From Eledone cirrhosa (Eukaryota): a DNA stretch of 28,727 nucleotides. The number at the start of each line of letters is the position of its first letter. Position 1 is the stretch's first letter. A program made the position numbers and the translations under genes. Below are positions 9,120 to 21,604 of this stretch, piece by piece. The notes beneath the pieces are model-generated. The model was not told the DNA's origin. It made no database searches and saw only the letters and a list, made by a program, of their open reading frames with translations. The stretch lies in NCBI GenBank assembly GCA_964016885.1, contig CAXHJY010000475.1, forward strand, positions 1-28,727, written 5' to 3'.

Positions 9120-9310
9120 GAAAAAGTATGACCCCGACGGCAGAGCTCAAGCCGTTTCGACGGCTATTTCTGTCAAGAAATAGCCGTCGAAACGGCTTGA
9201 GCTCTGCCGTCAGGGTCATACTTTTTCCTATTTCCCACTCTACTACCCTAAGTATTGAGTACTTTGGTGCGTTATGGTCCACCTGGTCCCTTACCACATT
9301 TCCTTTGTTA
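9120..9310 (+). mobile_element. Fold-back module B, copy 1 (52-bp arms plus ~85-bp tail)
   Basis: 9120-9171 / 9176-9227 are inverted with one mismatch; tail CCCACTCTACTACCCTAAGTATTGAGTAC...CTTACCACATTTCC; flanked by (TA)n. Confidence 0.88.
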
Positions 9311-9480
9311 TATATATACATATATATATATATATATATATATATATACATATATATGTGTGTGTGTGTGTGTATATGCTTTCATTCTGAGCGTAGGTGA
9401 GAGAAAGCAGACGAACTGTAACGACAGTGAAATAGGGTATTGAAGAAGATGTGAGATGATACGATTTTTCTGAATCTTGA

Positions 9481-9768
9481 GTTAGTGTTGTCACTAATTA
9501 AAGCTAGCACACACTGACGAAGTGTAACAACACTGAAATACGATATTAACGTAGCTGTGCCATAACTTTCTAAATAACATTTTGTTAGTGTTGTCGGTGA
9601 TTAAAACTAGAACATACTGACGAAGTTTAACAACACTGAAATACGAGACAGCTTTCTAAATAACGTTTTATTAGTGCTGTCGCTGATTAAAGTTAGTAGT
9701 CACTGACAGGGTGTAACAGTACTGAAATACGGTATTAAGACAGCTGTGACATAACAGCTTTCCGAATC
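9481..9768 (+). repeat. Three diverged tandem units of ~86-103 bp, each with an HHR-like core
   Basis: Units start at 9481, 9584 and 9670 (TTAGTG.TGTC); each has CTGAC(GA/AG)..GT.TAACA..ACT-GAAATACG. Confidence 0.8.
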
Positions 9769-9799
9769 ATGTTGTGTTATAAAGCATAGTAATAATAAT

Positions 9800-9920
9800 A
9801 ATTGTTTCTACTTTAGGCACATTACCCCAGTTCGTTACTGGATTTGAACTCAGAATGTAAAGGGCCGTAACTCTATGCGTCAAAGCATGGCGTCCGACCC
9901 TCTACCGATACTGCCAATCC
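9800..9920 (-). mobile_element. tRNA-derived SINE, internally deleted
   Basis: Near-identical to the head of 26857-27039 (A box TGGCAGTATCGG, B box GAGTTCAAATCC) but lacks the central domain. Confidence 0.8.
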
Positions 9921-9934
9921 AAATAATAATAATA

Positions 9935-18200: not shown

Positions 18201-20044
18201 ACAACACCACCACAACCATCAACACTACAACCATTACCTCCACCGCCACCACTAACAACAACAACAACACCACCACCATCAACACTACAACCATTACCTC
18301 CACCGCCACCACTAACAACAACAACACCACCACCACCACCATCAACACTACAACCATTACCTCCACCGCCACCACTAACAACAACAACAACAACACCACC
18401 ACCATCAACACTACAACCATTACCCCCACCGCCACCACTAACAACAACAACAACACCACCACCACCATCAACACTACAACCATTACCTCCACCGCCACCA
18501 CTAACAACAACAACAACAACAACAACACCACCACCATCAACACTACAACCATTACCTCCACCGCCACCACTAACAACAACAACACCACCACAACCATCAA
18601 CACTACAACCATTACCTCCACCGCCACCACTAACAACAACAACAACACCACCACCACCATCAACACTACAACCATTACCTCCACCGCCACCACTAACAAC
18701 AACACCACCACCACCACCATCAACACTACAACCATTACCTCCACCGCCACCACTAACAACAACAACAACACCACCACCACCATCAACACTACAACCATTA
18801 CCTCCACCGCCACCACTAACAACAACAACAACAACACCACCACCATCAACACTACAACCATTACCCCCACCGCCACCACTAACAACAACAACAACACCAC
18901 CACCACCATCAACACTACAACCATTACCTCCACCGCCACCACTAACAACAACAACAACAACAACAACACCACCACCATCAACACTACAACCATTACCTCC
19001 ACCGCCACCACTAACAACAACACCACCACCACCACCATCAACACTACAACCATTACCTCCACCGCCACCACTAACAACAACAACAACACCACCACAACCA
19101 TCAACACTACAACCATTACCCCCACCGCCACCACTAACAACAACAACACCACCACCACCATCAACACTACAACCATTACCCCCACCGCCACCACTAACAA
19201 CAACAACAACACCACCACCACCATCAACACTACAACCATTACCTCCACCGCCACCACTAACAACAACAACAACACCACCACCATCAACACTACAACCATT
19301 ACCCCCACCGCCACCACTAACAACAACAACAACAACACCACCACCATCAACACTACAACCATTACCCCCACCGCCACCACTAACAACAACAACAACAACA
19401 CCACCACCATCAACACTACAACCATTACCCCCACCGCCACCACTAACAACAACAACAACAACACCACCACCATCAACACTACAACCATTACCTCCACCGC
19501 CACCACTAACAACAACAACAACACCACCACAACCATCAACACTACAACCATTACCCCCACCGCCACCACTAACAACAACAACACCACCACCACCATCAAC
19601 ACTACAACCATTACCCCCACCGCCACACCACCACCACCATCAACACTACAACCATTACCCCCACCGCCACACCACCACCACCATCAACACTACAACCATT
19701 ACCCCCACCGCCACCACTAACAACAACAACAACACCACCACCACCATCAACACTACAACCATTACCTCCACCGCCACCACTAACAACAACAACAACACCA
19801 CCACCATCAACACTACAACCATTACCCCCACCGCCACCACTAACAACAACAACAACAACACCACCACCATCAACACTACAACCATTACCCCCACCGCCAC
19901 CACTAACAACAACAACAACACCACCACCACCATCAACACTACAACCATTACCTCCACCGCCACCACTAACAACAACAACAACACCACCACCATCAACACT
20001 ACAACCATTACCCCCACCGCCACCACTAACAACAACAACAACAA
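12277..20044. repeat. 7.8-kb minisatellite, unit ATCAACACTACAACCATTACC(T/C)CCACCGCCACCACT(AAC)n(ACC)m, ~57-66 bp, roughly 130 copies
   Basis: Direct inspection; constant 36-nt core plus two variable triplet runs; occasional 44-bp frame-breaking units. Confidence 0.98.
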
Positions 20045-20111
20045 CCAGTCAATTCATTTTCTTTTTGTTTATCTCGCACTATGTGTGTGTGTGTGTATAT
20101 ATATATATATA

Positions 20112-20443
20112 TGATGATTTCCTGCGAATGAAACAGTTCTAGACCCGTAGAAGCCATTTCTATATTAAATATACATACTCTGCTATGTATTGAGTACCTT
20201 ACTTACTGTGGTTACCCCCGATTGAACCCGGGATAAACATATACATATATATATGTATATATATATATATATGTATATATATATATATATATGAGAAAGT
20301 ATGACCCCGACGGCAGCCGTCGAAACGGCTTGTGCTCTGTCGTCGGGGTCATACTTTCTCCTATTACCCACTCTACTACCCTAAGTATTGAGTACTCTGA
20401 TGCGTTATGGTCCATCTGGTTCCTTACCATATTTCCTTCGTTA
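20112..20443 (+). mobile_element. Module A (HHR clipped at the C of CTGA) + TA + internally deleted module B copy 3
   Basis: TGATGA-TTTC ctgc GAAT-GAAA-CAG ttctagac CCG-TA-GAAGC at 20112-20154; B from 20293 lacks the hairpin centre. Confidence 0.85.
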
Positions 20444-21413
20444 TTATATATATATATATATATATATATATATATATATATATATATATATATATATATA
20501 TATAGTAGTAATAATATATAATATATAGTCTATATTATATATATATAGAGAGATAATATAATATATATATATATATATATATATATATATATATATATAT
20601 ATATATATAATATAATATATATAATATAATATATAGTCTATATTATACATATATATATAGAGATAATATAATATATATATATATATATATATATATATAT
20701 ATATATATATATTGTATATATATATATATATATATATATATTGTATATATATATATATATATATATATATATATATATATATATATAATGTGTATATATA
20801 ATAGAAATCCATGTCAAGATGTCTTACAATAGCAGCAAGCGAGATATATTCAATAGCAACATGCCATAATACACATTACATTGGCAACAATAGAGGAGAG
20901 AAGTGTGTATATATAACATGTATATAATATATATATAATATATAATATATATAATAGCAGCAGACCACAATATAGGCGTTATACTCGCATCATGCACCAA
21001 GTAGACAATATATACTTATGTAGTTACAGCACAGTACAGTGAAGGAATATATTAGTGTTTATATGTGTATATATGTATATATATATATACATATATATAT
21101 ATATATATATATATATATATATATATATATATATATATATATAGATGTCTTTATATATATACATATATATATATATGTCTTTATACGTATATATATATAT
21201 ATATATACATATATGTCTTTATATATATGACATGACACATAGATAATGGATATTACGTACGCAACATGCGTTAGGGCAATACATATATACATATATATAT
21301 ACATACATATATATATATATATATATATATATATACATACATATATATATATATATATATATATATATATATATATATATATATATATATATATATATAT
21401 ATATATATATATA

Positions 21414-21604
21414 GGAACACGTATGACCCTGACGGCAGAGCTCAAGCCGTTTCGACGGCTATTTCTGGACTGAAATAGCCGTTGAAACGGCTTGAGCTCT
21501 GCCGTCGGGGTCCTACTCGTTCCTATTACCCACTCTACTACCCTAAGTATTGAGTACTCTGGTACGTTATGGTCCACCTGGTTCCTTACCACATTTCGTT
21601 CGTT
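21414..21604 (+). mobile_element. Fold-back module B copy 4
   Basis: Same hairpin and tail as 9120-9310, embedded in (TA)n. Confidence 0.88.

Follow-up and report, generated by a model that had tools for sequence, protein, structure and literature searches.

Fold-back hairpins of family B

The window, by which we mean the whole 28,727-nt stretch of DNA analysed here, is microsatellite-rich animal DNA, presumably octopus-like judging by its repeats, and carries four copies of a hairpin-forming repeat that we call family B: c1 (9120–9308), c2 (11107–11320), c3 (20293–20441) and c4 (approximately 21411–21603). In each of the four, an inverted, 5′-truncated copy adjoins the 5′ end of a direct (right) arm, (TA)n lies on both flanks, and an unpaired tail of approximately 77 nt is found on the right side only (Table 1). 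The tails differ pairwise at 7–11 of about 120 nt. A 7.8-kb minisatellite with a period of approximately 63 nt and AAC/ACC runs (12280–20043) lies between c2 and c3.

The four hairpins reported in the preliminary description were borne out by RNA folding, with predicted energies of −100 (c1), −114.5 (c2), −49 (c3) and −97.3 kcal/mol (c4), corresponding to z-scores of −21.1, −21.7, −10.1 and −20.1, respectively, while none of 200 shuffled sequences was as stable in any of the four cases. They had also been called perfect, which does not hold, as the arms differ at 1 (c1), 3 (c2) and 5 (c4) positions per 50 nt and are thus near-perfect. Similarly, c3 does lack the hairpin centre, but it is not the only copy with an altered one: the centres of all four copies are different. 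What had been called 'module A' turned out to be a separate element family (family A, see below).

Table 1. Positions of the family B copies, the family A copies and two further fold-backs in the window
Feature	Position	Strand	Remarks
c1, inverted (short) arm	9120..9171	-	Abuts a short run of (TA)n
c1, direct arm and one-sided tail	9176..9308	+	GAAAC at 9189, GTC at 9209-9211; hammerhead-like 3′ half; tail ends in (TA)n
c2, inverted arm (60 nt)	11107..11166	-	From the fold and arm comparison
c2, centre (13 unpaired nt)	11167..11179	+	Resembles the sequence preceding 11180 in longer family members
c2, direct arm and tail	11180..11320	+	GAAAC at 11201, GTC at 11221-11223; short terminus 11242, long terminus 11319
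c3, inverted arm (24 nt)	20293..20316	-	Meets the direct arm across a 2-nt overlap
c3, direct arm and tail	20315..20441	+	GAAAC at 20322
c4, inverted arm	21411..21471	-	5 mismatches to its own direct arm over 50 positions
c4, direct arm and tail	21472..21603	+	GAAAC at 21484
Family A, separate related element	7205..7345	+	Minimal type I hammerhead-like motif, CTGAAGA at 7210, GAAAC at 7229; tail runs into (TA)n
Family A copy	10958-11090		Own fold-back at the 5′ end
Family A copy	20110-20233		Cut inside the core
Fold-back of another family	26179..26540	both	- arm with CTGAGGA..GAAAC..GTA; + arm with GAAAC..GTA only and a tail of ~80 nt into (TA)n
Fold-back	3447..3820	long arm -	Inverted arm perfect over 70 bp, up to (TA)n; hammerhead-like TTGATAA core with long loop 2, ~57 nt across stem II

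The arms also carry subfamily markers. At 11236/11237, which is polymorphic in sequencing reads, both arms have the same allele in all four copies, with three haplotypes represented, in keeping with arms formed upon insertion from the subfamily to which each copy belongs. In a comparison across 50 nt, the left arm was nearest to its own right arm in two out of three copies, whereas the left arm of c4 was closer to the right arm of c1 than to its own (2 versus 5 mismatches). Two of the five differences between the arms of c4 fall on the family-polymorphic sites 11230 and 11235 (c2 numbering), and these differences may stem from two templates, later mutation or conversion. Overall, the concordance between arms is weak.

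Hammerhead-like motifs in family B and its neighbours

When read on the + strand, and on that strand only, the right arm contains GAAA and GTC together with a Watson-Crick stem III of 4 bp that closes a 9-nt loop, in agreement with the preliminary description of this arm as the 3′ half of a hammerhead ribozyme (HHR). The same pattern arose in 64 (c1), 46 (c2) and 48 (c4) of 5000 shuffled sequences, a chance rate of about 1% for a descriptor that was picked after the motif had been seen. Loop 3 contains a self-complementary hexamer. Given this low rate, the hexamer and a tail that is weakly collinear with that of family A, the right arm is probably the 3′ half of a type I hammerhead. The left arm is the reverse complement of this region and, as had been stated before, carries the exact complement across the GAAA–stem III–UC junction where CTGANGA would be expected. 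A list of every CTGANGA in the window placed none in any of the four B copies. The copies themselves are therefore not hammerheads, since the GAAA, stem III and UH site are present and the CUGANGA core 5′ of stem II is absent, though they probably descend from a ribozyme, with putative self-cleavage of the ancestor. Searches against Rfam returned seven matches for c2, all of them miRNA precursors below threshold and none from a hammerhead family; for the window, the best 150 of 264 matches (E up to 10) were miRNA-type or pestivirus UTR models below the gathering score, with no hammerhead among the matches listed.

The B tail was compared with that of family A. In all eight pairs of B and A tails, only 3–105 of 1000 shuffled sequences reached the observed score, compared to 434–967 for four control tails, and 38–57 of 2000 shuffles reached the score of the A–B local alignment. 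The tails thus appear collinear, with modest homology. The (TA)n at the ends of A copies harbours c2 and c3, and that at the end of another fold-back (8909–9110) harbours c1; such nesting is expected if insertions keep renewing the target. We also considered a composite 'A plus B' element, which is ruled out by the occurrence of A alone at 7264, by c1 and c4 without A, and by a drop in read depth between A and B; two sequencing runs (X5 and X7, see below) that hold A with little or no B also speak against it.

Two further fold-backs are informative in terms of their layout. The one at 26179–26540 shares its build with B, and one of its arms extends far enough to retain the core; the arms have clearly diverged (76% by BLAST, including the centre) and extra hairpins occupy its centre. 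In the fold-back at 3447–3820, the perfect 70-bp arm spans only sequence past the cleavage site, and the core resembles the U3-A8 variant described in the accessible text of PMC4209133. In these two fold-backs, the symmetry continues for 50–76 nt beyond the cleavage site before it ends, and stem I therefore does not determine the outer end. This speaks against taking the end of the symmetry in B as the end of stem I. Hammerhead-like motifs elsewhere in the window have 24–60 nt between the core and GAAA. A strict hammerhead descriptor missed the motifs at 7210, 26308 and approximately 3600, which were read by eye.

Several other repeats were observed in the window. In a large fold-back at 4936–5479, both arms contain CTGATGA and the centre encloses a second hammerhead-like motif (5245), and the fold-back at 8909–9110 that hosts c1 contains a hammerhead-like motif at 8988 (− strand) and CTGATGA at 9025 (+ strand). 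Further type I hammerhead-like motifs in which loop 2 is long are found at 26700–26790 (− strand), 4606 and 25426, and the motif at 26782 has loop sequence in common with the one at 26308. Short imperfect hairpins beside (TA)n and without an obvious core (4000–4101 and 5540–5621) are possibly more truncated fold-backs. In addition, a dispersed SINE-like repeat family is present at 9780–10090, 12089–12257 (− strand), 26858–27041 and 28161–28186, which we presume to resemble a cephalopod SINE, and a single C2H2 zinc-finger match below the Pfam cut-off (E 7e-4) was found at 2214–2459, a region that, together with 22517–22846 (− strand), possibly represents LINE remnants.

Fixed ends and variable centres in public sequencing runs

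We aligned 4 of 11 public runs (X1, X5, X7 and X9) to the reference 11020–11322 (likeness 85). In X1, 21043 contigs matched, and in X9, 24717 of 12,467,656 reads did so, both counts including family A tails. These two runs share one species label; the library of X9 is a reduced-representation one, and the window itself may derive from X1. Run depths are not copy numbers; nonetheless, the B family is very abundant. Exact-pattern scans of metagenome contigs, viral contigs and prokaryote genomes gave zero matches.

The outer ends of the element are fixed. The short arm ends at 11242 and runs into (TA)n (138 loose ends in X1 and 1722 in X9), and a second group of loose ends at 11234 (56 and 1598, respectively) reaches the same place. 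The tail ends at 11317–11319, again running into (TA)n (81+174 in X1 and 6531 in X9). The centres, on the other hand, vary. Of 15 joints listed (107 in all), 12 link the left arm at 11145–11159 to the right arm at 11183–11202, and a separate table holds four further X1 joints, so that we count at least 16 distinct centre junctions, several with 1–6 extra letters, on the basis of joints that each have sides shorter than 30 letters. Single centre joints in X1 had depths of 57–443 versus 8–15 for the long contigs listed, which implies that some junctions recur or were copied. Left-arm variant counts mirror the right-arm ones in the runs, but short records fit both arms and these counts are not evidential.

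Some family members extend further 5′ than the symmetric arm. In 56 X1 contigs, the sequence 5′ of 11180 is non-palindromic and resembles the 13-nt centre of c2. Their consensus (agreement 0.62, median length 19) opens with seven letters complementary to 11190–11196, which suggests a native stem II closed around a loop of approximately 33 nt, although the same letters could instead mark an inverted-arm junction. Another group of 1662 X9 reads, probably from a different subfamily, diverges ahead of 11193. Ends of X9 molecules are frequent at 11166, 11180 and 11313, the last of which ends an AATT in the window; we infer that these are restriction cuts, which hide sequence further 5′. No relative bearing CTGANGA at the expected position was seen in the run sequences, in which the visible 5′ flank of at most 30 letters ends before the expected core.

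The remaining two runs mainly concern family A. In X5, which has another organism label, family A is strong and a B-like tail is weak, and at 11032 a loose end connects a B-like motif with the tail of A, which hints at a family intermediate between A and B. X7, a run guessed to be RNA, contains the family A tail only (24 contigs), and a search for runs with this sequence listed no RNA run; neither result has a bearing on expression.

Origin of the hairpins

Previous work provides a layout for comparison. According to the available text of PMC8557442 (Craig et al. 2021), Penelope-like insertions comprise an inverted 5′-truncated copy and a one-sided tail of 30–40 bp, with a bias for (TA)n, and the origin of such head-to-head insertions is named there as unresolved. 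The same insertion units are described in PMC3846280 (Arkhipova et al. 2013), where, in the part at hand, the junction palindromes are read as self-priming. The match between B and this layout weighs against the palindrome-correction history put forward in the preliminary description. Given the structure of the B copies, we consider it most likely that each is a dead-on-arrival, truncated insertion of the end repeat (pLTR) of a Penelope-like element, whose RNA would probably have carried a type I hammerhead with a long loop 2. The element's endonuclease would nick (TA)n, and reverse transcription would begin at two fixed sites approximately 18 nt and 96 nt past GTC, downstream of the hammerhead. 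Copying would mostly halt in or near stem II and loop 2, before CTGANGA, and two truncated copies would be joined head-to-head at a variable centre, with the two arms coming from either twin priming or cDNA self-priming. With such joining, a symmetric arm would arise anew at each insertion; CTGANGA would be missing because both copies stop short of the core, that is, by 5′ truncation rather than through a corrected palindrome; and the left arm would display the complement of the GAAA–stem III–UC junction because it is an inverted copy. No open reading frame for a Penelope reverse transcriptase or endonuclease was found among the 6 of 99 window ORFs scanned. Further points speak against the Penelope-like reading: the variable centres could be later deletions in a long palindrome, the tail of ~77 nt contrasts with the 30–40 bp reported in PMC8557442, as far as the available text goes, arm concordance is weak, the A–B tail homology is modest, and neither a CTGANGA relative in the visible flanks nor an Rfam hammerhead match on c2 was found. 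As an extension of this reading, we regard it as rather unlikely that the hammerhead stems themselves set the stop and join points of the cDNA, such that the core would be lost at nearly every insertion, very many near-perfect hairpins of 50–60 bp would be seeded, and c4 would be a two-template fossil.

The earlier proposal started from a different event, namely a single template switch (quasi-palindrome correction) that overwrote CTGANGA and killed the hammerhead in one master copy, whose locked hairpin was then amplified as a non-autonomous family, with the centres deleted later. The exact complementarity of the left arm across the junction, the fixed outer end and the recurrence of some junctions in X1 are all in line with such a master, and c1, c3 and c4 could formally be derived from c2 by deletions in its centre. 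A single overwritten master, however, sits poorly with the high variability of the centres, where the many different joints, several with extra letters, would call for numerous later deletions as well as paired changes on both arms, given that the three 11236/11237 haplotypes each occur on both. Correction of the junction would also not account for a left arm that inverts the whole right arm, including loop-2 sequence and 10 nt past what is likely the native stem II, and other families in the window share the same build with an outer end far from stem I. We therefore consider this history improbable. An equally improbable alternative accepts a Penelope-type fold-back but takes the GAAA–stem–GTC pattern as fortuitous, in a family end without a hammerhead. 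Here, the lack of a core within the visible upstream flank, the Rfam result for c2 and the chance rate of a post hoc descriptor would be as expected, and Naiad elements, for which the accessible part of PMC8557442 describes a (TA)n target and no canonical hammerheads, would be a precedent. Yet the pattern sits at the same position relative to the tail as the hammerhead-like motif of family A, loop 3 is palindromic and a native stem II is apparent.

We found even less reason to favour a DNA-based element with a terminal hairpin, such as a MITE or a Helitron or Helentron derivative, which is very unlikely. B is indeed short, abundant, non-coding and palindromic and adjoins microsatellites. MITEs, however, have terminal inverted repeats at both ends, whereas the ends of B are not inverted repeats of each other and the palindrome is confined to one end, leaving the unique tail of ~77 nt. 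Helitrons end in a 3′ CTRR following a short hairpin, and neither end of B reads CTRR. In addition, variability is seen in the centre and not at the fixed ends, and module A occurs without B at 7264 and in runs X5 and X7. Non-LTR retrozymes consist of tandem units with full hammerheads, and B copies are dispersed and have no core.

Among known systems, B is thus closest to the endonuclease-bearing Penelope-like insertions of PMC3846280 and PMC8557442, to judge from the portions at hand, with which it shares the adjoining inverted 5′-truncated copy, the tail at one end and a microsatellite target that hides the target-site duplication. It differs from them in its longer tail and in its short arms, which result in a hairpin of 24–60 bp, and no ORF or parent element was found for B. 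Poseidon PAc of Anolis carolinensis, as presented in the accessible sections of PMC11167929 (Frangieh et al. 2024), likewise has two fixed ends downstream of the hammerhead and an AT-rich target. In vitro, both target strands are cut and extended, two reverse transcription start sites bound the tail, and hammerhead cleavage is dispensable; extension of both strands would explain the two arms of B. PAc targets an ATT motif rather than (TA)n, and those sections of PMC11167929 contain no inverted products. The pLTR hammerheads in the available text of PMC4209133 (Cervera and De la Pena 2014) share with B the order of GAAA, stem III and UH as well as a palindromic loop 3, and include motifs 100–700 bp apart on opposite strands and the U3-A8 core variant; stem III of B is longer (4 bp plus an A-U pair) and the 5′ core is absent in 4/4 copies. 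Finally, non-LTR retrozymes, as far as PMC7229834 and bioRxiv 10.64898/2026.07.22.740005 were accessible, are also short, non-coding and associated with Penelope pLTRs as well as type I hammerheads, but they form head-to-tail tandems with complete ribozymes, in contrast to the dispersed head-to-head stubs without a core in B.

Penelope-like elements make up 6.83% of the Octopus vulgaris genome according to the accessible part of PMC13282606, and the portion of its supplement at hand contains no hairpin, hammerhead or motif terms. A description of family B was not found in the literature, including a search with a 16-letter motif (0 matches), although repeat libraries may already hold the family. 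Most likely, B is an ordinary case of the described insertion pattern that adds one more family. Since it is short and abundant and has markers on both arms, it would be usable as test material for models of Penelope-like head-to-head insertion. Because the whole hairpin fits into one read and subfamily markers lie on the arms, the family could decide between self-priming, which predicts identical arms, and twin priming on two RNAs. Should the B copies be transcribed, they would hypothetically supply double-stranded RNA that could directly enter editing or small-RNA pathways.
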